Virus record (IMG/VR): IMGVR_UViG_3300042505_001397
Direction: 5' to 3' (one strand)
Source: an uncultured virus (IMG/VR IMGVR_UViG_3300042505_001397)
Lineage: Duplodnaviria; Heunggongvirae; Uroviricota; Caudoviricetes
Length of the DNA stretch: 20,000 nucleotides
Shown here: positions 196-19,928 of the stretch, piece by piece
How the letters are laid out: the number at the start of each line of letters is the position of its first letter
How positions within the stretch are numbered: position 1 is the stretch's first letter
Made by a program: the position numbers and the translations under genes
Notes under the pieces: model-generated
What the model was told of the DNA's origin: nothing
Databases searched by the model: none
The model's input: the letters and a program-made list of their open reading frames with translations, nothing else

Positions 196-396
196 TCAAT
201 TTGTTTTTGAAACTAAGTCGTATGGATGAGGAAATTTAGGTCCATTTATCAAACCTTCTTTCGTATAAGCCACAAGAACTTTTTTATCATTCATACCCAC
301 AACAGGCTTTTCACCTTCGTAGATATTGATGATTGCAATTCTGGAGCCTGATCTATCCAACCAAGTTTCACCAATTTTTGGATTCATTGTTTTCAT
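196..396 (-). CDS. Hypothetical phage protein, 66 aa
   Basis: ATGA overlap with the upstream gene's stop; fits the operon packing. Confidence 0.7.
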   Translation of the reverse strand: MKTMNPKIGETWLDRSGSRIAIINIYEGEKPVVGMNDKKVLVAYTKEGLINGPKFPHPYDLVSKTN

Positions 397-1307
397 TCGA
401 ATATTGTGTCAATTAATTTAGCCAAATAAAGTTGGTCAATTCTGTCTGACTTATTTTTGTCCAACTCGTGAAGTAAAGTACTCATAAAAACGCTGTCAAC
501 GCCTATGAGCTGTTCTTTCAACACAGCAGGATCATGAAGGTCTATATCATGAGCTTGCCATATCATTTTCAGCATTTGTCCCGCTGTGATTCTCCAACCT
601 CTCGAGATGAATTTTCGTGTTCTGAAAATCGAAGCCAGAGGATATAAACTGCCCTGGTAGATTAATGTTTTGGAAAGCATTGCTTCCAAGGCATCTTGAG
701 GCAACACAAGGTTTCTTGCGTTGTAATCGTAATAACATTTACAGTGAGCAAAGTCATAATTTTCATGTATTTCATTTGGTTCACCGAAGAACCTAATCAC
801 GATTTGGACTCTGTCCTTTAGAGTGATTGCATTGTCTGTGAGAAAGACTGGTCTGTATTTATCTTTCTTATCCCTGACGACACTGATAAGTTCTTCAGCC
901 TCTTCCAGTGCATCGGTTTCACCGACCTCCATAAGAGTCGCTTGTTCAGTCTCTCCGGCCACACCTTGGCTTCTGACAATGATTTTTATGCGATCTTCGT
1001 CAATGCCTTTGATGTTTGTTATCACTGCTTTTTCGACGTGAATGTGCTTTTTAACAATCTCAGACTCCATGTTGCTTTTGTATTTTTCAACATAGTACTC
1101 TGTTGTGGCCAATGCAGTTTCATAATTACGAAAATAGATGTCGTAGTCATTGACTTTTTCGCCCAATAACATTGACGTGATACACCCACCGCTCACGATG
1201 ATGTTTTGTCTCATTAATTCAACGAGCTCTGGATTATCAATTGTCTTCAATAAGTCATCCACTTTATTTCTGATGACCATTTCAATCGTGGACTTTTTCA
1301 TACCCAT
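393..1307 (-). CDS. Nucleotidyltransferase, Pol-beta superfamily (CCA/poly(A)-polymerase head-like)
   Basis: Signature VSGGCITS...VNDYDIYF (GG...DxD) and later NYDFAHCKCYYD resembling the (R)DFTxNA motif; SD AGGAG. Confidence 0.7.
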   Translation of the reverse strand: MGMKKSTIEMVIRNKVDDLLKTIDNPELVELMRQNIIVSGGCITSMLLGEKVNDYDIYFRNYETALATTEYYVEKYKSNMESEIVKKHIHVEKAVITNIKGIDEDRIKIIVRSQGVAGETEQATLMEVGETDALEEAEELISVVRDKKDKYRPVFLTDNAITLKDRVQIVIRFFGEPNEIHENYDFAHCKCYYDYNARNLVLPQDALEAMLSKTLIYQGSLYPLASIFRTRKFISRGWRITAGQMLKMIWQAHDIDLHDPAVLKEQLIGVDSVFMSTLLHELDKNKSDRIDQLYLAKLIDTIFE

Positions 1308-4131: not shown

Positions 4132-5019
4132 TTATTTAATTGGGCAAATGCCACTTGCACATTCATCATTTGACTCGTAATCAATGTTTCCGGTCAGTGA
4201 TGAGATGATTTTTGTTTCACTCACAAGGTCATTGAATTGTTCTTCTGTAATCTCTTCATAAGGAGCTTGAGCGAACCCATGATCGGAATGCAATAAGAAT
4301 GACAATGATTTGTGATTATGCTTGTAGTTTTCTTTTAGATATTGTTTGATATCTTCAAGCTCTTCTTTGCGATAATACACTGTACAGCTCACGCTGTTGT
4401 CGGACCAGATTGTTTGAAGCTTCTTAATCATTTTCAACTGATCAATTGCAGTCATGTCTTTGGCCAACACGGTGCCTTCTGGATAACTGAAAGGAAATGT
4501 CACCACCACTGTGTTATAATCTTCAGAACCATCAAAGTTCTTCACGAATTCCACGGGATAGCCATTTTCCTTGCACACACCTACCAAAGGATGTGATGCA
4601 GCAATACGTATTCTTCTGTACATATACTGAGCATATGCAGGATGAATACCTGGAGTCACGCCTGGAAGTAGTGACAGTGTGCCTGATGGTTTAACGGTGG
4701 TCAGCTTAATTGACCGATTCATGTTGTTTTCTTCCGAATATTCTTCATCAAATATTCTCAAGAACTCATAACATTCATCCAGCCATTCAATTTGCTCTTC
4801 AGTTGCTTGAAGAATACCCGTGACACCGATGCCCATTCTCATGTTCTTGTGAACAATGTGCTCTGTTTCTCTGTTGTGAGAAGGTAGAAGCAATGAATGT
4901 TTGTTAATGCGATATAGCAATTGAGCCACATCAAACAACTCTTCTTTCGACTCAATATTTGGTAAAAAGATTTCTGCCAAACAGCATGTTTCAAAATTTA
5001 CCAATGATTGCTCTGCACA
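4132..5019 (-). CDS. nrdJ: Class II (adenosylcobalamin) ribonucleotide reductase, exon 2
   Basis: Begins with CAEQ (thiyl Cys and Glu); TTVKPSGTLSLL; WSDNSVSCTV; QAPYEEIT; C-terminal CASGICP redox pair. Confidence 0.92.
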   Translation of the reverse strand, partial: CAEQSLVNFETCCLAEIFLPNIESKEELFDVAQLLYRINKHSLLLPSHNRETEHIVHKNMRMGIGVTGILQATEEQIEWLDECYEFLRIFDEEYSEENNMNRSIKLTTVKPSGTLSLLPGVTPGIHPAYAQYMYRRIRIAASHPLVGVCKENGYPVEFVKNFDGSEDYNTVVVTFPFSYPEGTVLAKDMTAIDQLKMIKKLQTIWSDNSVSCTVYYRKEELEDIKQYLKENYKHNHKSLSFLLHSDHGFAQAPYEEITEEQFNDLVSETKIISSLTGNIDYESNDECASGICPIK

Positions 5020-5842
5020 CATTTTGTTACTCGATAAATCGAGGGTTGAATATTTCTATCAACCTCTATATATTACTATATAGTTCAGACTATATCATCA
5101 TCCATCTCTGGAGCTTATCGTCCGATTTTATAATAAAAGCTTTCAAATATAAAAGGATGAACAAGTGCTTCAAACTGTTTGTTAAAATGTTTTGGAAGCG
5201 TCAATCCATATTTATTTGTGGCTTGCTTTTCCACATTAAATTGGATGTTTAGTTTTTCTTTTATAGCGCCCGCTAACTGATAATTATCACCATAACTAAA
5301 TCCGTTTGTATGCAATCTATAAAGAGGACTTTCCTCACCAGATGCTAAGATTATCTTTTTTCTGCTACCATCTGCCATTAATATTATGGCCAAGGCTTCT
5401 GCATCTAAAAGTGTTAGCATATGAGGTTCTATTACTTTTTTACCTTCTAAATAAATTCTGTTTCGTATTTTAGTTAATTTAGGGTGCGCTTTAGATTGTA
5501 CACGAATTTGTTGTCGTCTATTACAACCATCATGTATATTCAAAGCTGGTTCCCAAATTTTATAGCCTATTTCAGCTGCTTCTAAAGTAAGAGCTACTTC
5601 ATGTATGTAATCACTATTTTCCTTTATCATTGTGACTGATAGTCGGGAATTGTGGTTTTCACCCCGTTTATCTAAGTATCCATCAAATGTTGAAAAGTAA
5701 TATAATCTCTTACTAATGTCTTTATTATTAATCATAGTCGTTGCACCTCTTTAATTAAAGTTGGCACAGGATTGCCTAATAGGTTTCCCTGTTTTTAGAT
5801 AAGTTTTCTATACTAATTACTCAGTATAGCCCCAATGCATTT
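5020..5842 (-). mobile_element. Group I intron (IA2, td-like) in nrdJ, 823 nt
   Basis: P1 UAUAACCCU/GGGGCUAUA with U-G at the splice site; P2 with GUAA loop; P3 CUUAUC/GAUAAG; P7 ACGACUA/UAGUCU; P8 with GAGA loop; P9 CUAUAUA-GUAA-UAUAUAG; ends ACAAAAUG. Removal restores YNP|CAE in frame (642 aa). Confidence 0.93.
5115..5735 (-). CDS. Intron-encoded LAGLIDADG homing endonuclease (two-motif, I-SceI/LAGLIDADG_2-like)
   Basis: Motifs YFSTFDG and ALAIILMADG; LHTNGFS; C-terminal FEALVHPFIFESFYYKI resembling the I-SceI C-terminus. Confidence 0.82.
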   Translation of the reverse strand: MINNKDISKRLYYFSTFDGYLDKRGENHNSRLSVTMIKENSDYIHEVALTLEAAEIGYKIWEPALNIHDGCNRRQQIRVQSKAHPKLTKIRNRIYLEGKKVIEPHMLTLLDAEALAIILMADGSRKKIILASGEESPLYRLHTNGFSYGDNYQLAGAIKEKLNIQFNVEKQATNKYGLTLPKHFNKQFEALVHPFIFESFYYKIGR

Positions 5843-6883
5843 AGGGTTATAACCTTCTACGTCTGGATCTGGGTACTCAAATTCTCCAAGTCTACCCATT
5901 TTACGTGAAAGATTCAGGTTAATAAGGCCATAGGGTTCAGAACCTCCTTCATAACCTCTCCAGAAATACTCATGCAAGTCATCGATATCATCACATATTA
6001 CACTGTTATTGCTCATTGCACGATATGATGGTATATTTCCCATGCTCCAGTTTTTCGCCAGTAAATACTCAACGTCATCGGGATCACCAATTGCAATTTG
6101 AGCACTTCTACGGACGTTACCTGCAACAATGATTGCGCCAATGATATTCATCATGTCCAATGCATCGACGGGTCTTATTTGTTTACCTCGTTTCTTTTCA
6201 AGTATTTTAGATATTTCCCCAATGCCCCAACATAGGTCTTCTGGCCCACTTGCAACGCCTCCAAAGCCCTTGATAGGTGTGCCTTTACCTCTAATCGCTT
6301 GCGTTGAATATGTGAATGTTCCATTGTCCTCTGTCTCACTCAAAAATGCCGATTTCAAAACTTTGCCCAAGAACTTTACCCAACCTTCTCTTGAGTCAGG
6401 GATGATGAAATCTGCACCACCGTTGTCAATTCTTGTCGGAGCTTTGAACCACTCTTTGACTGCAGGCAATTTCTCCACATTCTTTCTCTGAATGTTGAAA
6501 CCCACTCCACTTCCAAGAGCCAACATGTCCATTGCCCATGTGAATGGTCTCACTGGATTGTCGATGGTCACAAAAGCACAATTTTGCAATGAAGCCAACC
6601 CATACCTGTTCACGGTTGCTGTACCAGCTTGCCACCAATAGCGACCTGCTACAGAGCCTTTTAAACCCAATAAATGTGAAGCCAGTCGATATTCTTCGTC
6701 CTTGGTAAATCCACAGCCAAATTGTTCATCACACGCATTGATCACACGCAGCACTGTGTCAGGAAACTCTTCAGTTTCTTCTGAGACCTCATTGAGCTTT
6801 CTTGCATAAGTTCTTTTGTAAGTCAAGTATCCAACCGTTGACCACGGGGTTTCAATCTTCGGCAATTCTTCTTTTGTCAACAT
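5843..6883 (-). CDS. nrdJ: Class II ribonucleotide reductase (monomeric RTPR-like), exon 1
   Basis: TYKRTYAR, LQNCAF, LGSGVGF, DSREGW, IKGFGGVASGP, VAGNVRRSA, RAMSNNS; ends EGYNP. Confidence 0.92.
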
Positions 6884-8731: not shown

Positions 8732-9202
8732 TTATATTTCTCCTTTGAAATCGCCCCAAGACAGGGCTTTGTTTAAACGTTCTTTATGTCTTTCGGTTAT
8801 ATTTTCACTCACATTCCAAGAAATCTTTTCGATACGTTTATTGTACCATTCCTTCTTGGTGGGTGCTTCCACGTGGCACAGAGACCATGTTTCTGCGTAT
8901 GAAAGTGCTCCTTTGGCTTTGTATTGCTCTATGCAAATGAACTCAAAATCAGTCTTTGGTCTTTCGGCCAACATCTCTGAGATTGAATTACTTGAAGAAC
9001 AATATGTTTTCCAATTTGATTCTTGACCTTTATTCAGTTTGCCCGAACCTTTAAAAAGTTTCTTTCCAAGGTAAAAGCGTTTCATGTAAGGATCCCGAAT
9101 CACATATATGAAACCCGAATAAGCATCTTTGTCCATCGGCTCTTCAAAATGCCAGTGTCCATTTCTGCTCAACGGTTTCACAATCACTTTAGGAATCACC
9201 AT
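8732..9202 (-). CDS. GIY-YIG (Seg-like) nuclease-domain protein, free-standing
   Basis: GFIYVI...FYLGKK, WKTYCSSS, conserved E (YAET) and YN. Confidence 0.72.
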   Translation of the reverse strand: MVIPKVIVKPLSRNGHWHFEEPMDKDAYSGFIYVIRDPYMKRFYLGKKLFKGSGKLNKGQESNWKTYCSSSNSISEMLAERPKTDFEFICIEQYKAKGALSYAETWSLCHVEAPTKKEWYNKRIEKISWNVSENITERHKERLNKALSWGDFKGEI

Positions 9203-10490: not shown

Positions 10491-11030
10491 TTAATCAAAA
10501 AATGAAACTAACACAACTCTGCGATTTTTGCAGTGAAACGGATATCTTCCATGAAACAGGTTTGCTTTGTATAGAAAAATTGAATTTTCAATGGCTGGAT
10601 TGAAATACCATACTTCAAAATCCTCCATACTATTGAATATCTTGTCCTTAGTCAGTGCCCTATCCCCATGGGTATTAGACGTGAATAAAGCAGTTCCGCT
10701 TTCATTGTCAGTTTCCAAATACAGCACAGAAGCCCATTTGGGTCTCCTACCGGCTATATTTCCATCAGAATGTATACGAATGCTTGTATCTTTTGTCTCA
10801 TCGTTCAACCTTGCGAAAGATGCAATTGTTCTTTGCTGCCTTCCAAGTTCTTTTGACACAGCCAACTCTATACACGACCTTACTCTAAAGCTCAGGTCAG
10901 AATAATACAAGTCAGTACCTCCTATATCAATTGGCGTAAATAAATTATTAGAATACCTATCTTTTACTTGCTCCAATTCATAGTTAGATAATACATTCTT
11001 TATCACCATATAATCATCAATGGATTTCAT
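10491..11030 (-). CDS. 2-oxoglutarate/Fe(II)-dependent oxygenase (DUF6445-like)
   Basis: HxD (IHSDG), WASVLYL, SGTALF, distal H (LFHG), terminal R strand (RRVVLVSFF). Start uncertain (11030 or 11060); overlaps the polymerase end. Confidence 0.78.
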   Translation of the reverse strand: MKSIDDYMVIKNVLSNYELEQVKDRYSNNLFTPIDIGGTDLYYSDLSFRVRSCIELAVSKELGRQQRTIASFARLNDETKDTSIRIHSDGNIAGRRPKWASVLYLETDNESGTALFTSNTHGDRALTKDKIFNSMEDFEVWYFNPAIENSIFLYKANLFHGRYPFHCKNRRVVLVSFFD

Positions 11031-12888
11031 ACCACGAGCCTCCAATTTTTCCGTCTCCATCCATAATATTAACTCCGAATAGTTTTGGCCCTTCTCTAAA
11101 GGCGTTTACTCCAATTTCTCGCGCTCTTTCCGCATGCTCTTCAGGTACCATAAAGTCTATTTCATCGTGCATAAATATTAGCGGAATATATGGAATATTT
11201 TCTTTTTCCAAGTTTTCCATCGCAAGCATAACCGCTGCACTGCAAGTGACTTTCTCACAAGACTGCAAAAGATATACAAGCAACTTATGAAAGGAATCAA
11301 CGTAAATGCGATTACCAGCGATAGAAGGTATGTAGCCCTCTCCATTTTTACTTGTGCTCCCGTAAATTTTCTCAAGTTTTTCAGTTAACATCTTGAACCC
11401 TGGAACAGCCTTCACAAAGCCTTCCTTGAGTTTCTTGCCTTTTCTATCGTCAAAATATCCAAAGATATAACTCCAAAGTTTTGATCCGCTTGCTCCGAAC
11501 AAGAAAGCATATAGAATACGCTTTGCAACAGATCTAGGAACAACGTGATCAATCCCTATATCAGCAAGTACCCCTGTCAGCGTATCTGCGTTAAACTGAT
11601 GAATATCTCCGTGTAGTAGTGTATCAATAAAAGTCTGATCCCCCAAGTAGTGCGCCAAACCTCTGGCTTGATTACCCGCAGAGTCACAGCCAACAAGCTT
11701 CCAACCAGGAAGACAGCTGAACAAGCTTCTCATTTCTTTGCCCCACTTGCTGTCAGCAGACGGAACGTTCACGATGATGGAATGTCTGGCTCTCATACTG
11801 GGTGTCCCAATTGTCATGCAGTCTCCATGAAGTCTGCCATTGGAATCTGTGTTTTCGATCCAACCTTTCAACACAGCCAATCTAGAACTTGCGGTCAAGA
11901 ATTCAACGTAAAGCTTACCGTCACCTCCAAGAAAGTCTAAACTATCTTCCGTAATCTTTGGAGACATCTGAATTTTCTTAAATGTGATTGGGTCTGTCTT
12001 ATAGTTGTATTCTGTGGGAACCCAACCGTTTCTGAATAGGAAAATCTTCACGTCGGTCACTGAATCAAGACTCAATTCTTTGAATTCTACGCGAGTGTAT
12101 GGTCCAAGAATCATTCTTTCTTCACCTTCAAAACCGCTGTAGGGATCGACTCCGAACCAATTTGCCGTGTGAGAATTGTAACAGCCTTGCTTGGTCCACT
12201 TCGGTTCTTTCCACTCAACTTCGCCCAATTTCTTATCTTTGGCCACACACTTGAGACCGAGTCTGGAAGACAATGCAACATATGCTTTGTCTTTTTCAGC
12301 TTCAAGTATCTTGACCATTTCAAGAGCGTAATTGAGATCGAATGGCCAACCCTCTAAAGAAGCTACGGCACACCACATAGACACTGCATGTTCGGCTTTG
12401 AGATACAATGCAATTTGAGGTACTTTTTGCATTAATACAGTCAGCTCATCCACAAGCACATCGTAGATCATTAAGTTCAGATCCACGTCTCGTTCACCAT
12501 ATTCAAGCATTTCTTGACTGAATTGTGTCCAATCGTGGAAGTCAATCTTTGGAAAACCAAGAGCTTGACCCCACACATCTAGACTGTGGCCTGCGTTACC
12601 AAATCGCTTATAATCCAAAACTTGTGACATTACCAAAGTATCGTGAATACCACAATCTTTTGGCAGTCTCACATTGAATAACTTACGAAGAACCATTAAG
12701 TCATAACCAATAATGTTATGGCCTATCACTAAGGTGGCTTTTTCAAATATCGATTTCCAGCGAAGATCTCCCTCTAAGAAGTATTGCTTATCACCTGTGT
12801 CAATGTCAATGATCCACATGAGATGCATTTTCGTGACATCTCTCAGCAGATTATCTGTCTCGATGTCAAAGAGTATTCTCATCGTCAT
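11017..12888 (-). CDS. Family A DNA polymerase with 3'-5' exonuclease (T7 gp5-like)
   Basis: ExoI FDIET, ExoII GHNIIGYD, ExoIII YGERDV; motif A GCDSAGNQAR; DIHQ; motif B RSVAKRILYAFLFG; LLQS; motif C MHDEI. Confidence 0.96.
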   Translation of the reverse strand: MTMRILFDIETDNLLRDVTKMHLMWIIDIDTGDKQYFLEGDLRWKSIFEKATLVIGHNIIGYDLMVLRKLFNVRLPKDCGIHDTLVMSQVLDYKRFGNAGHSLDVWGQALGFPKIDFHDWTQFSQEMLEYGERDVDLNLMIYDVLVDELTVLMQKVPQIALYLKAEHAVSMWCAVASLEGWPFDLNYALEMVKILEAEKDKAYVALSSRLGLKCVAKDKKLGEVEWKEPKWTKQGCYNSHTANWFGVDPYSGFEGEERMILGPYTRVEFKELSLDSVTDVKIFLFRNGWVPTEYNYKTDPITFKKIQMSPKITEDSLDFLGGDGKLYVEFLTASSRLAVLKGWIENTDSNGRLHGDCMTIGTPSMRARHSIIVNVPSADSKWGKEMRSLFSCLPGWKLVGCDSAGNQARGLAHYLGDQTFIDTLLHGDIHQFNADTLTGVLADIGIDHVVPRSVAKRILYAFLFGASGSKLWSYIFGYFDDRKGKKLKEGFVKAVPGFKMLTEKLEKIYGSTSKNGEGYIPSIAGNRIYVDSFHKLLVYLLQSCEKVTCSAAVMLAMENLEKENIPYIPLIFMHDEIDFMVPEEHAERAREIGVNAFREGPKLFGVNIMDGDGKIGGSWYEIH

Positions 12889-15866: not shown

Positions 15867-16546
15867 TTAAGCAAAACAATATTCTGAGTCTAAAATTAAA
15901 TTTAAATCAAGTGTACCTATTTCTACATTACTGATATCTCCTTGTATATCCTCCATAAGACTATTGAGAGGGTCATTTGCATACAATTCCACAAATGTTT
16001 CTCTCACCAATTTAAATAGCTTCGGCATATCTGCCAACAAACATCCAAACGAGTCGTGTATGGTTGTCATCGGGAAATCTGCCCTGTATACAGTCAAAGC
16101 CAGGTGTGCTGCATCCAAGCTGTGAATACAATTTGGACTTGCTCCTTGCGCTTGTTTACCCTTCGATGGTACATGATCTTCAATGAAACACACTGCCAGC
16201 TGAAGTGTATTTTCAAAGTAACCTGAGCTATTTCTCAAACCCAATGGCGGCCCGTATTGTACCCAGATTTTCTTTACTTTACCTTCTGTATAATGCTGTA
16301 CCACAGGAAAATTGGTTATTGGAACAGTCCAAGAAAGAAATCTTTCTTCCGCTTCCGCCTTTTTACCTGCTTCTTCAAATACAGTTAAGAGCCGCATAGG
16401 GCGTTCCAAAGCCGATTTGCAAGTCTCCAGCACCATTCTACCCATATAAGAGCCCCACTTATGTTCCATGAATAGTAGAAGATCTATACCATGTTTTCTT
16501 GCATCATCAATTTGTTGTTGACCAAGCCCATATGCAGTTCCGCCAT
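15867..16546 (-). CDS. T7-type single-subunit RNA polymerase, exon 3
   Basis: The frame is open back to 16546, giving (Y)GGTAYGLGQQ; WTVP..FPVVQ; SPNCIHSLDAAHL; motif C IHDSFG. Confidence 0.93.
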
Positions 16547-17284
16547 CGTTTTGTTCAGTGACAGTCGTTAGTTGTCACCCGTAATGTGTTTTCATTAAAA
16601 TTATTAAACTGCAAATTCACCGTACAGTTCTTTTGTTTTTGCAAGCACACATTCATGCGCTTCTTTTGCGGTATCAAATAACCCAAGATACAGCTTGACA
16701 CCGTTATGACCTAATCGTGCTTGAAACTTACCACTTGGCGTGCTTAAAACTCCTTTATAACCTGTTGTATTATTTGCAGGTTTTTCAGAGTTTATCTGAT
16801 TTTGTGATTGTGTGGCTATACGTAAATTTTCAATTCGATTATTTAAAGGGTTTCTGTCAATGTGGTCAATTTGCTCTTCCTTTTTCAATGCCTCGTTGAA
16901 TAATTCCCATATAATCCTGTGAACCATATAATTTTTTCTTTTATATTCAAATTGCATATAGCCGCTGCTATTTACCCATCCAACCTCAAATTTTCCATTA
17001 TTACTTTCATATCTAAATAATTTACCATCTTTGTAATATAATATATCTTTCCAATTCATTTCCGTTACCTACTTTTCAAACACATTACAGCTATATATTA
17101 CTATATAGACCAGACTATATCATCATGCAATTGCATGGAGTGCGCTTCCAAGACACTTGTCTTGTACTCCCTTTCGGGATAGTCGTTGCACCTTCAAAAA
17201 GATTTCTCTTTAAGCTTGGCTCAGGATTGACCACGGTGGATGGTTGTCCCCTGAATTCACACTCTTTTACTTCCACCTAGATTA
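16547..17284 (-). mobile_element. Group I intron (IA2) number 2 in RNAP, 738 nt
   Basis: P1 CUUCCAU/GUGGAAG; P3 GAGUGUG/CGCACUC; P7, P7.1 CCC-GAAA-GGG, P7.2, P8 and P9 as in T4 td; 13-bp P9.1 encloses the ORF; ends CUGAACAAAACG. Splicing gives MTLP-T|AT-GG. Confidence 0.95.
16604..17059 (-). CDS. Intron-encoded HNH-AP2 homing endonuclease
   Basis: VHRIIW...IDHIDRNPLNNRIENLR...N; AP2 domain NNTTGYKGV...FQARL...YLGLFDTAKEA. Confidence 0.92.
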   Translation of the reverse strand: MNWKDILYYKDGKLFRYESNNGKFEVGWVNSSGYMQFEYKRKNYMVHRIIWELFNEALKKEEQIDHIDRNPLNNRIENLRIATQSQNQINSEKPANNTTGYKGVLSTPSGKFQARLGHNGVKLYLGLFDTAKEAHECVLAKTKELYGEFAV

Positions 17285-18110
17285 ATGGAAGAGTCATTAC
17301 ATTTCTTTTGACAACTTTTCTACGTTGTTTTACGTCCTTAACTCTGCACCAATATATAGGTGCAATTTTTGGTATTATATCTATGTTTTTGTCTCTAAAT
17401 TCACGAATACGCTCTAAAAGTTCTTTTCTTTGTTCACTTTTAAATTCAGCATTGTAAATATCCTTTTTCAATTGTATTAATGTATCTATTACCGTTTCGG
17501 CTTCTCCAATTTCTTTTTTGGTGAATTTTGATTTTTCAATTTCCAGCTTATCCCACACATAATCTGCAACATATTTATATAGATCTCCAGGCAACTCAAG
17601 AGGTACTAAGTTAACGTGCGGTGCAGTTATTTCATCTTTTGTAAGTGCAGATAAATGTTGACTACCGTTGTTGCTTCCATCAACAAAGCACTCTAAACTT
17701 GAAGAATACCCAAAATCATTGAATGGATCTAGATGGAATCCATGCTTTATTTGCCATTCTCTCAATTTTTTAAGCTCATTACATGCCGCAAGGAATTGCC
17801 AAGGTTTATCTGCTTTCATCCAGCCTTGATTCACCTTGGGTTGCATTGCATAATCAAGCAATATGTCTTCATTATCTGTGGACCATAAATACCTATCCTT
17901 GAGTGGAATCTTATCCGTTTTTGCACCGTCTTCCCTTCCAGATGCTCCTGCCCAATTTGAAGCAATACTAACCATAAGCCAAAAGAAACCCTCCTTTCCA
18001 ATCTCCTTTTTGTCTTCTCTCAGCAAAAGACCTTTTGCTAAGTCAGTACCTTGTTCATGAAAATAAGCTGTTGCTGGATATCTTCTACCACGGAAGTCAT
18101 AATAATAACG
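17285..18110 (-). CDS. T7-type RNA polymerase, exon 2
   Basis: YDFRGRRYP, QGTDLAKGLL, ADKPWQFLAAC, motif A DGSNNGSQHLSAL, DLY, motif B RKVVKRNVMTLP. Confidence 0.93.
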
Positions 18111-18898
18111 CATTTGTTCAGAAAATTTCGCTAATATTTTCTCGTTAATTAACATGTGGCCAATTTCTTCCTGTTCGTATACAGTTAATTGTGCCAGGAT
18201 GCACACCGAATAATAATGCAATTTCTTTATTGGAAAAACCTGCAGAGAACATTGCTTTTATATCTCTCACGGACTCTTCATTTAATTTAGAATTTATTGC
18301 CGTTGTACCCTTCACCATCAATCCCAGATCTTTTGCATGTCTGACATTTTCTAGTTGTGTGCACCATTCTAAATTATCAATATTATTATTCTTTTTGTTT
18401 GCATCTAAGTGGTTTACTTTTGGCAAATTAAGCGGATTTGGTATAAAAACTAATGCCACTAATCTGTGAACCATTTCTTTCTTACTTTTACCGTTATAAC
18501 TCAGTGGCACTTGTAAATAACCTAGACCATTGTCATTTTGTTTCAAGATACGTCCGGCTTTCACATATTCCCCACCAAAAGTACTTTTGACAATTCTATC
18601 TTTACTCTTTACATTGCCATAAGAAGAAACTTCATAACACTCATCAAAATCTTTCCAGATTTCCATAATAATCTCCGACTATTTTAAATTAATTAACAGC
18701 TGTATATTACTATACAGTTCAGACTATATCATCTTGGCATCCGCCAAGCTCCGCGCTTCCACTAAGCTATTAGTGTACTCTACTAAGATTAACAAACATC
18801 CGTCTGTTCTTTTCGATAGTCGTTGCACCTTTTGAAGGCTCAGGATTGTCCTAAGGATGTTTCCTGAATTCACGGAGTTTACTACCACCGACATATTA
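18111..18898 (-). mobile_element. Group I intron (IA2) number 1 in RNAP, 788 nt
   Basis: P1 CUACCAU/GUGGUAG; P3 CUCCGUG/CGCGGAG; P7 ACGACUA/UAGUCU; P9; 10-bp P9.1 encloses the ORF; ends CUGAACAAAUG. Splicing gives FYH|RYYYDFRGR in frame. Confidence 0.92.
18145..18666 (-). CDS. Intron-encoded NUMOD4-HNH homing endonuclease (I-HmuI-like) with C-terminal HTH
   Basis: EIWKD...YEVSSYGNVKS (NUMOD4); VHRLVA..FIPNP...VNHLDANKKNN...NLEWCT..EN..HA; SD GGAG. Confidence 0.93.
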   Translation of the reverse strand: MEIWKDFDECYEVSSYGNVKSKDRIVKSTFGGEYVKAGRILKQNDNGLGYLQVPLSYNGKSKKEMVHRLVALVFIPNPLNLPKVNHLDANKKNNNIDNLEWCTQLENVRHAKDLGLMVKGTTAINSKLNEESVRDIKAMFSAGFSNKEIALLFGVHPGTINCIRTGRNWPHVN

Positions 18899-19642
18899 AT
18901 GGTAGAAAGTTTTTCCAATGAACCTTTTTGCGATATTTCCTATGGCTTTTGCTTCTCTTAGCTTAGTTGCCTTTGCTTCAGGGTTCTGAGAATCCCATAT
19001 GTCTGAAAAAGCTTCAGTTTTATTCCGAAGCGCCCAGTTGTATATCTTGAAAACATCTTCATTAACGTTCCAGCCCATTGCTTGAGATCTGTTTATGCAC
19101 TCAAATATGATCGGGTGTGTTTCTGGAGTGACTTTTGACATCACTTCCTTGCTGCCTGTTTTGATCATCACGGCACCGGACTCATGTCTCAGACTTGTCC
19201 AAGATGCATAGGGTGTTAATGATGGTAATTTCTCTACAGCATCTACTTCGACTTTCTCCCATAATTCGCATATGATTTCATCATTTAGCACTTGAATGAT
19301 ATATGCTGCATGTTTTCCATTTGACTTGCCCAAGAGCACTGTGATCAGACCAAGTTCTTCAAATGAGTAAAGTAAGAATGCCCCTGTCTTTGCAGCCAAG
19401 GAAGAGTCTTTCTTCATCTTGTATTTGCTTCTGACTCCGTGCCCGATTGCAGAGATAACCTCAGTTAGATAAATGGTATTCTTTTTTGATCCCTTTTTTG
19501 ATCTTGTATATAAGTAAACTATTGATACAAGAACATCAAAGTAGTCTTCCACTTCAAGCTCCTTCAAGTATTTCAAAGGGTTTTGATTCGATATTTCATT
19601 TGCCAATCTGGATTTCAATGATGATATTAATATTTGTCTCAT
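18899..19642 (-). CDS. T7-type RNA polymerase, exon 1 (spliced product about 749 aa)
   Basis: Ends INRSQAMGWNVNEDVF...AKRFIGKTFYH, the segment preceding DxRGRxY in T7-type RNAPs. Start placed at ATG 19642, downstream of the hairpin (start less certain). Confidence 0.85.
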
Positions 19643-19665
19643 AATGAAAAGAAAAAAATAAGATG

Positions 19666-19691
19666 ATAAAAGGGCACCCCGAAGGGTGCCC
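19666..19691 (-). terminator. GC-rich UUCG terminator-like hairpin just upstream of RNAP
   Basis: GGGCACCC-TTCG-GGGTGCCC-TTTTAT, 4 nt after the stop of the 43-aa ORF. Confidence 0.85.
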
Positions 19692-19695
19692 GTAA

Positions 19696-19827
19696 TTATT
19701 TTAAAGCCTTTACTGCGTAAACCAAGAAAAGGAGGGCTCCTCCGACTACCACAAATTTTACTAGAAGCCCTACCGCAATTACGGTCATGGCTAAGTTTCC
19801 TAGGGATATTTGTGATTGTTTTTTCAT
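19696..19827 (-). CDS. 43-aa hydrophobic membrane peptide (below the cutoff)
   Basis: Manual translation: MKKQSQISLGNLAMTVIAVGLLVKFVVVGGALLFLVYAVKALK. SD AAGGT; its own terminator follows. Confidence 0.75.
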   Translation of the reverse strand: MKKQSQISLGNLAMTVIAVGLLVKFVVVGGALLFLVYAVKALK

Positions 19828-19928
19828 GATTTACCTTTTTAGTGATTAGATTGATATATTCATAATTATTCTCGATTGATTTTGTTATGGTTTTAAACCC
19901 CATGGGGTCGAGGTAATTTGCACAAGGC

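Follow-up and report, generated by a model that had tools for sequence, protein, structure and literature searches.

The 20,000-nucleotide stretch analysed here (the window) comes from an uncultured Caudoviricetes virus, IMG/VR record IMGVR_UViG_3300042505_001397, and carries on its minus strand a T7-like family A DNA polymerase gene whose nucleotide pocket departs from the canonical design. The gene and the motifs that concern the pocket are listed below, in the residue numbering of the encoded protein.

11017-12888, minus strand: T7-like family A DNA polymerase gene, 623 amino acids, fused 3'-5' exonuclease and polymerase (open reading frame and translation)
12859-12867, minus strand: Exo I motif D8-I-E10, corresponding to T7 D5 and E7 (translation and T7 numbering map)
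11662-11685, minus strand: motif A, DSAGNQAR, with the catalytic D402, N406 (T7 L479, Taq I614) and the gate Q407 (T7 E480, Taq E615) (translation, T7 and Taq alignments)
11668-11670, minus strand: codon CAA of Gln407, the steric-gate position (codon read and alignments)
11494-11535, minus strand: motif B or O-helix, RSVAKRILYAFLFG, with R452, K456, Y460 (T7 Y526) and F464 (T7 Y530, Taq Y671) (translation and alignments)
11497-11499, minus strand: codon TTC of Phe464, the O-helix Tyr position (codon read)
11251-11277, minus strand: motif 6, VYLLQSCEK, on the long palm helix, with V538 (T7 N611), Y539, Q542 (T7 Q615) and E545 (T7 G618) (T7 alignment and numbering map)
11161-11169, minus strand: motif C, H574-D575-E576, corresponding to T7 H653, D654 and E655 (T7 numbering map)

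The protein matches the Pfam family DNA_pol_A (PF00476) over residues 272-620 with 55.3 bits against a cut-off of 34.3, and PHROG 17 (DNA polymerase) with an E-value of 1.9e-98; its best HMMER matches among PDB sequences are chains of T7 gp5 (E 4e-26). An AlphaFold2 model built from 96 sequences, with a mean predicted local distance difference test score (pLDDT) of 96.4 and a predicted template modelling score (pTM) of 0.91, shows the Klenow-type right-hand fold; Foldseek lists T7 gp5 on top (query TM-score, TMq, 0.74-0.79, E 4e-36), followed by the Aquifex, Bst and Klenow Pol I enzymes at a TMq of ~0.7. A first-pass annotation, made from the sequence alone, had judged the catalytic Asp residues to be intact, and this is borne out by the alignments: D402 and D575, along with E576 and the motif B residues R452 and K456, align with T7 D475, D654, E655, R518 and K522, and all five are invariant or nearly so in alignment A1. 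Motif C (H574, D575 and E576) is invariant in that alignment and is kept in 121/121 sequences of the close family, that is, the query and its 120 best homologues, 62-96% identical, many of them on contigs of 60-86 kb. In the exonuclease part, D8, E10, D63 and D134 align with T7 D5, E7, D65 and D174, and both D8 and E10 occur in 115 of the 121, the remaining six being N-terminally truncated.

Three features of the T7-like PolA subfamily (cluster 5, cd08643) are present, namely T7 gp5 as the closest solved or characterised relative, a Tyr at position B3 of motif B and the fused exonuclease, and the protein sits within the tree of T7-like representatives. Five related viral records encode one PolA gene each, and PolB is found in 0/5. 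The surrounding 20 kb form a minus-strand replication module with an ATP-dependent ligase, a ribonucleotide reductase, a T7-type primase-helicase, a 5'-3' exonuclease, a MazG-like pyrophosphohydrolase, a Gp2.5-like single-stranded-DNA-binding protein and a T7-type single-subunit RNA polymerase. The gene product is the working replicative DNA polymerase of the phage, T7-like and with fused proofreading.

T7 gp5, in which the DxE exonuclease motif and motifs A, B, 6 and C are shared, is both the best sequence match and the best fold match. The equivalents of T7 D475, R518, K522, Y526, K536, Q615, H653, D654 and E655 are all kept, the ddNTP-permissive position (dideoxynucleoside triphosphates) is occupied by Tyr in both enzymes, and both lie beside a T7-like primase-helicase, exonuclease and single-subunit RNA polymerase. 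The two proteins are nevertheless only 22-24% identical, the window polymerase being 81 residues shorter (623 versus 704), and from T7 to the window enzyme E480 is replaced by Gln, Y530 by Phe, G618 by Glu, L479 by Asn, N611 by Val and R604 by Asp. The thioredoxin-binding thumb insertion is present in only ~29% of T7-like cluster 5 (Czernecki et al. 2023, PMC10201439).

At its 3' end the polymerase gene shares 44 bases (11017-11060) with the start of the adjoining open reading frame 10491-11060, which bears a weak similarity to 2-oxoglutarate (2OG)-Fe(II) oxygenases (E 0.005, below the cut-off).

Gln and Phe at the positions of the Glu-Tyr pair

The HMMER alignment with T7 gp5 pairs DSAGNQAR with DASGLELR and AKRILYAFLFG with AKTFIYGFLYG, the whole O-helix stretch RSVAKRILYAFLFG being set against RDNAKTFIYGFLYG. 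An independent alignment with Taq polymerase pairs the same motif A with DYSQIELR and the O-helix with AKTINFGVLYG, the stretch facing RSVAKRILYAFLFG being RRAAKTINFGVLYG. The numbering map derived from the alignments recovers the canonical T7 residues D5, E7, D475, E480, Y526, Y530, K536 and D654, and the equivalences read Q407 = T7 E480 = Taq E615, Y460 = T7 Y526 = Taq F667, and F464 = T7 Y530 = Taq Y671. The Klenow counterparts of the gate and of the O-helix Tyr are presumably E710 and Y766, their strings and numbers agreeing with the Taq alignment.

The first-pass annotation had placed a Gln at the steric gate, a Phe at the O-helix Tyr position and a Tyr at the T7-type ddNTP-permissive position. 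The first two are confirmed by the codons read (CAA and TTC) as well as by both alignments, and the third by the pairing of Y460 with T7 Y526. The canonical family A pocket contains a hydrogen-bonded Glu-Tyr pair, and the window polymerase has Gln407 and Phe464 at the aligned positions instead. N406, Q407, Y460, F464, V538, Y539 and E545 are each present in 121/121 sequences of the close family, and since this holds for both Q407 and F464, the two replacements are neither chance nor private changes of this genome.

Glu545 and the switching of the gate

A broader comparison set consists of the best 150 of the 4,701 matches of an exhaustive HMMER search with the query, taken as representatives at 50% identity. 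Over these 150, the states at the gate and at the equivalents of Klenow positions 762 and 766 are QYF in 65, EYY in 49, QYL in 9, QFF in 5, QFY in 4, QYY in 2, EFY in 2 and EYF in 1, with other single states or fragments making up 13. Leaving out 28 representatives that are fragments or lack an aligned motif residue, 131 full-length rows were aligned (122 representatives, the query and 8 cultured phages), and all alignment columns were ranked by their mutual information with the gate state, no position being assumed beforehand.

The top-ranked column is residue 545, with a mutual information of 0.981, equal to that of the gate with itself: Glu occupies it in 76/76 Gln-gate rows and in 0/55 Glu-gate rows, the latter having Gly (46), Ala (7), Asp (1) or a gap (1). 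E545 lies three residues past the conserved Gln of motif 6, at the site aligned with T7 G618, and within helix 533-562 of the AlphaFold2 model; its position rests on the T7 alignment, a PDB search with residues 520-600 alone, aimed at motif 6 of Taq and Klenow, having returned no useful match. Second in rank is residue 406 (L42, I11, V1 and M1 in the Glu class; N34, C21, I12, A4, Y3, L1 and D1 in the Gln class), and next comes residue 464. Residue 531 is Arg in 53/55 rows of the Glu class and variable among the Gln class.

The covariation of Gln with Phe that the first-pass annotation had expected in an alignment of homologues is indeed there: residue 464 is F60, L10, Y5 and M1 in the Gln class (60/76 with Phe) and Y54 and F1 in the Glu class (54/55 with Tyr). 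Taken jointly, the states at the gate, 464 and 545 are QFE 60, QLE 10, QYE 5 and QME 1 on the Gln side, and EYG 45, EYA 7, EYD 1, EFG 1 and EY- 1 on the Glu side; mixed states, either a Gln gate lacking Glu545 or a Glu gate with Glu545, do not occur in the 131 full-length rows. Strict coupling thus links Q407 to E545, and position 464 follows more loosely.

The helix that carries E545 has been remodelled further. The motif 6 Asn column (T7 N611) holds Asn in 54/55 Glu-gate rows and N35/V19/C9/S7 across the Gln-gate rows; in the window it is V538 (codon 11275-11277, minus strand), a Val that is fixed in the close family. The next residue, Y539 (codon 11272-11274, minus strand), is Tyr in 57/76 Gln-gate rows.

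A FastTree phylogeny of the 131 rows requires 4 or more changes of the gate state. Position 464 changes together with the gate in 4/4 independent contrasts, for which the sign test gives p 0.125, significance being unreachable with four pairs. A Pagel-type test of the gate against 464, in my own implementation on the midpoint-rooted 131-row FastTree, favours dependent evolution (likelihood ratio 41.6, 4 degrees of freedom, p 2e-8). The co-evolution of gate and O-helix residue proposed by the first-pass annotation thus stands, though the partner strictly coupled to Gln407 is Glu545, not Phe464.

A second tree was computed with IQ-TREE (quick mode, LG+G4) from 53 chosen rows, columns 406, 407, 464 and 545 having been removed. 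It shows four gate changes, all of them forced by branches with Shimodaira-Hasegawa-like approximate likelihood ratio test (SH-aLRT) support >= 95. The large Gln clade includes the window polymerase, Kolga, CRP-7, DSS3_PM1 and Vibrio 1.208.B; a second lineage is the SIO1-like Q/L clade, adjoining T7 and HTVC103P; the third and fourth are the single representatives P0255 and P0244, each inside Glu-gate clades. The approximately unbiased (AU) test rejects a single Gln clade (log-likelihood difference 288, p 2.3e-36), the Gln group having been defined after the tree was seen.

Recombination or domain exchange was considered as the source of the scattered Gln lineages and rejected: in separate trees of residues 1-380 and 381-623, P0255 and P0244 remain among their Glu-gate kin, so domain swapping does not explain their position. 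A search around P0255 examined 119 other proteins. Its 27 best-scoring full-length neighbours (55-64% identity) are all E/Y/G, and the whole set includes 113 full-length Glu-gate rows (EYG 104, EYA 5, EYD 1 and others) and 5 fragments; 4 further Q/F/E proteins appear at lower identity.

Most Gln-gate rows of the 53-row tree (18/26) fall into the one large clade, as would be expected if the three residues had no functional coupling and marked a single old clade by co-inheritance. This explanation is already largely refuted, and I regard it as exceedingly improbable: there are at least four switches, with the whole Q/E545 pair changing each time, the AU test speaks against a single clade, P0255 and P0244 are nested in Glu-gate kin in the whole, N-terminal and C-terminal trees alike, and no Q/Gly or E/Glu545 state is found in the 131 rows. 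The gate state switched at least four times, and the Gln/Glu545 combination has several separate origins in phages. Two rare metagenomic representatives with mixed states, P0189 (E/Y/Asp, sister of the Gln-gate P0244) and P0260 (E/Phe/Gly), are possible evolutionary intermediates.

Among cultured phages, the polymerases of SIO1, Kolga, Vibrio 1.208.B and CRP-7, 30-35% identical to that of the window, likewise have a Gln gate and a motif 6 Glu. Pelagibacter phage Kolga and Vibrio phage 1.208.B share the full Q/Y/F/E state of the window polymerase, whereas Roseophage SIO1 has Leu, not Phe, at the O-helix position, and Roseobacter phage CRP-7 combines the Q/F gate and O-helix states with a Phe at the 762-equivalent position. 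The DSS3_PM1 polymerase combines the Gln gate and a motif 6 Glu with the canonical O-helix Tyr and a Phe at the 762-equivalent; the passages of papers on that phage that were available (PMC8323127, PMC12697855) make no mention of its gate state. T7, VP4, HTVC103P, S-CBP1 and P-GSP1 have the E/Y gate and O-helix states.

The proposed pocket and its alternatives

The long palm helix of family A polymerases follows the minor groove in the direction of the insertion site. In the canonical design the Glu of the motif A strand (T7 E480) blocks the 2'-OH of the incoming nucleotide, and the Tyr hydroxyl at the end of the mobile O-helix (T7 Y530) hydrogen-bonds to E480. The reading I favour, and consider probable, is that in the window enzyme the gate carboxylate no longer sits on the motif A strand but has been relocated to the palm helix, making the Tyr hydroxyl dispensable. 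The gate would be Gln407, isosteric with Glu but uncharged; E545, on the palm helix at a site where canonical enzymes have Gly or Ala, would supply the relocated carboxylate and keep Gln407 in place as acceptor of a hydrogen bond from the Gln amide. With the static palm instead of the moving fingers as its anchor, the gate would no longer need the Tyr hydroxyl, which at 464 would be without a partner and free to be lost. As the aliphatic chain of Gln, the part that clashes with the 2'-OH, is kept, selectivity for deoxyribose, and so for deoxyribonucleoside triphosphates (dNTPs), would be expected to persist.

Several lines of evidence are in keeping with this proposal. Judged by sequence, the acceptance of Phe, Leu or Met at 464, with Tyr tolerated in 5 rows, agrees with a freed hydroxyl. 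In the closed Klenow complex a hydrogen bond joins E710 and Y766 (PMC3715850). The same source reports that E710Q alone binds the correct dNTP weakly (overall dissociation constant, Kd2, from 0.83 to 230 uM), incorporates it more slowly and is a mutator, and that Y766F is near wild type; a Gln gate in need of compensation and a dispensable Tyr hydroxyl would fit the impairment of the one mutant and the wild-type-like behaviour of the other. These two changes (Hohlbein et al. 2013, PMC3715850) are the same substitutions at the same aligned positions as in the window enzyme. The Klenow mutants are, however, laboratory singles devoid of the helix Glu, E710Q being crippled and mutagenic, whereas the window enzyme combines both changes with E545 and is a conserved sole replicase. 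In a simulation paper, one passage has the long palm helix interacting with E710 and Y766 (PMC4882331).

Other observations weigh against the relocation of the carboxylate, or narrow it. I infer the spatial contact between Q407 and E545, the swap of hydrogen bonds and the retained selectivity; for the contact, the grounds are the covariation, the course of the helix along the minor groove and a single published sentence (PMC4882331). Five Gln-gate rows keep Tyr at 464, so the hydroxyl need not be lost. The changes at V538, Y539 and N406 may mean that the pocket differs beyond a simple move of the carboxylate. Taq I614N:L616I and I614K raise the incorporation of ribonucleoside triphosphates (rNTPs), according to a table in a review (PMC4854868), and as I614 is the position of N406, retained sugar selectivity is an assumption. 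The sample consists of the best 150 of 4,701 matches to this query rather than of all PolAs, the trees were built by fast methods (FastTree and quick IQ-TREE), the Gln group of the AU test was named post hoc, and the root of the trees is not fixed, so that the Glu/Gln switches are counted without a direction.

An alternative would be that the two-residue change, Glu to Gln and Tyr to Phe, relaxes or retunes sugar or base selectivity or fidelity, the enzyme accepting rNTPs, 2'-modified or unusual nucleotides better than T7 polymerase does. Positions 407 and 464 do co-evolve, Q407 and N406 fall on the Taq sites at which I614K, I614N:L616I and E615G raise rNTP use (PMC4854868), and the mutator effect of Klenow E710Q (PMC3715850) points the same way. 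Yet the steric block is kept, Gln being isosteric with Glu, and large, abundant phage lineages with intact proofreading have the Gln state fixed in their only polymerase. The compensating Glu545 accompanies the Gln gate in 76/76 rows, which suggests that function has been restored rather than changed; altered selectivity is an unlikely account.

A pocket adapted to a non-canonical genome, such as one of 2-aminoadenine (Z) or deoxyuridine (dU) DNA, is more doubtful still and has very little probability in my estimate. The gate contacts the sugar and the minor-groove side of the nucleotide, not the substituents at C5 or at purine C2, and the Gln/Glu545 combination occurs across very diverse phages (SIO1, Vibrio phages and the Pelagibacter phage Kolga among them); both points count against it. 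In its favour, both DpoZ clusters (phiVC8-like and Wayne-like) have Phe in place of the O-helix Tyr (PMC10201439), as does the phiVC8 sequence itself, and the closest cultured relative in the phage collection, DSS3_PM1 (38% identity), which belongs to the Naomviridae with their reported dU-DNA (PMC8323127), has a Gln gate. On the other side, phiVC8 DpoZ, a member of a different PolA cluster from the window polymerase, still has the Glu gate, its residue at the motif 6 position being Ala, and DSS3_PM1 retains Tyr at 464.

Searches of the five related viral records, three of them >= 90% complete, bear on the same point. The PurZ family PF00709 was found in 0/5 and nowhere in the 20-kb window, the control being positive in 14/14 genomes. 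A link to Z-genomes was accordingly rejected on this result and on the differing state of phiVC8 DpoZ (E/F/Ala). The dCMP/dCTP deaminase family PF00383 occurs in 1/5, in a record whose polymerase is 54% identical and not in the 96%-identical relative. Neither ThyX nor ThyA was found in the five records (0/5 each), which is uninformative either way. The dU-DNA module of the Naomviridae type is described as a phage dCTP/dCMP deaminase together with a dTMP phosphatase (PMC12697855). With the deaminase in only 1/5 relatives and Tyr464 kept by DSS3_PM1, a link to dU-genomes is not supported by these searches, which did not include PF12917, the HD-hydrolase family of the DSS3_VP1 dTMP phosphatase.

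Papers of 2013, 2016 and 2025 (PMC3715850, PMC4882331, PMC12220841) describe the Glu-Tyr pair as invariant or universally conserved. The passages available of the 2023 PolA reclassification (PMC10201439) mention only the Phe of DpoZ, and those of a 2026 T7 preprint and of a 2026 paper on UDG-fused PolAs only the Glu gate. No description of a natural Gln steric gate in family A, SIO1-type phages included, was found in the full-text literature as far as its retrieved passages go, subscription-only papers, figures and supplements being outside the scope. Gln-gate sequences, SIO1 among them, have long been public, and the sequence logos in Figure 3 of PMC10201439 could show the variant uncommented.

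Polymerase enzymology treats the pair as a fixed point of reference, and it is a main target in engineering for acceptance of RNA or modified nucleotides. A large group of natural polymerases that serve as sole replicases, among them those of cultured phages known for long, is without it and always has the third change, so the rule is not universal. On the present account, the single Klenow E710Q mutant would fail because this third change, the helix Glu, is absent, and a concrete three-residue swap is offered for testing in T7 or Taq. Switching repeatedly and in an all-or-none manner, the pocket provides a clean natural case of active-site epistasis. For annotation, a Gln at the steric gate is no reason to call a polymerase broken or exotic, or to assume modified DNA.

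A bolder extension, which I hold to be possible at best, is that family A has two interchangeable pocket designs and that the palm-helix Glu clamp uncouples sugar checking from closing of the fingers, with measurable differences in kinetics and selectivity. Were this the case, one might expect some tolerance of ribo-, 2'-modified or damaged nucleotides, aided by the Asn at the Taq I614 position; the Gln/Glu545 enzymes would offer a natural and transplantable scaffold for polymerase engineering; and the second design would have been reached repeatedly via short-lived intermediates such as E/Y/Asp (P0189) and E/Phe/Gly (P0260).

Split genes and homing endonucleases in the window

Some of the neighbouring genes are split. 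The T7-type single-subunit RNA polymerase is present as three open reading frames on the minus strand (15867-16469, 17277-18221 and 18896-19903) that match successive parts of PHROG 414, with two HNH endonuclease frames in its gaps (16604-17059 and 18145-18666, minus strand). The ribonucleotide reductase (PHROG 367) is likewise split into N- and C-terminal frames, 4132-5022 and 5813-6883 on the minus strand, divided by a LAGLIDADG endonuclease frame (5115-5735, minus strand). A search of Rfam for group I introns, covering the surroundings of both split genes, had 0 matches at gathering thresholds; the RNA polymerase frames may represent either diverged introns or a truly split gene.

An open reading frame of 304 amino acids at 393-1307 (minus strand) falls into PHROG 4400 (unknown function); it matches no Pfam family and shows a weak nucleotidyltransferase-like similarity. 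A GIY-YIG SegE-like frame lies at 8732-9202, and at least four homing-endonuclease genes are thus present within the 20 kb.

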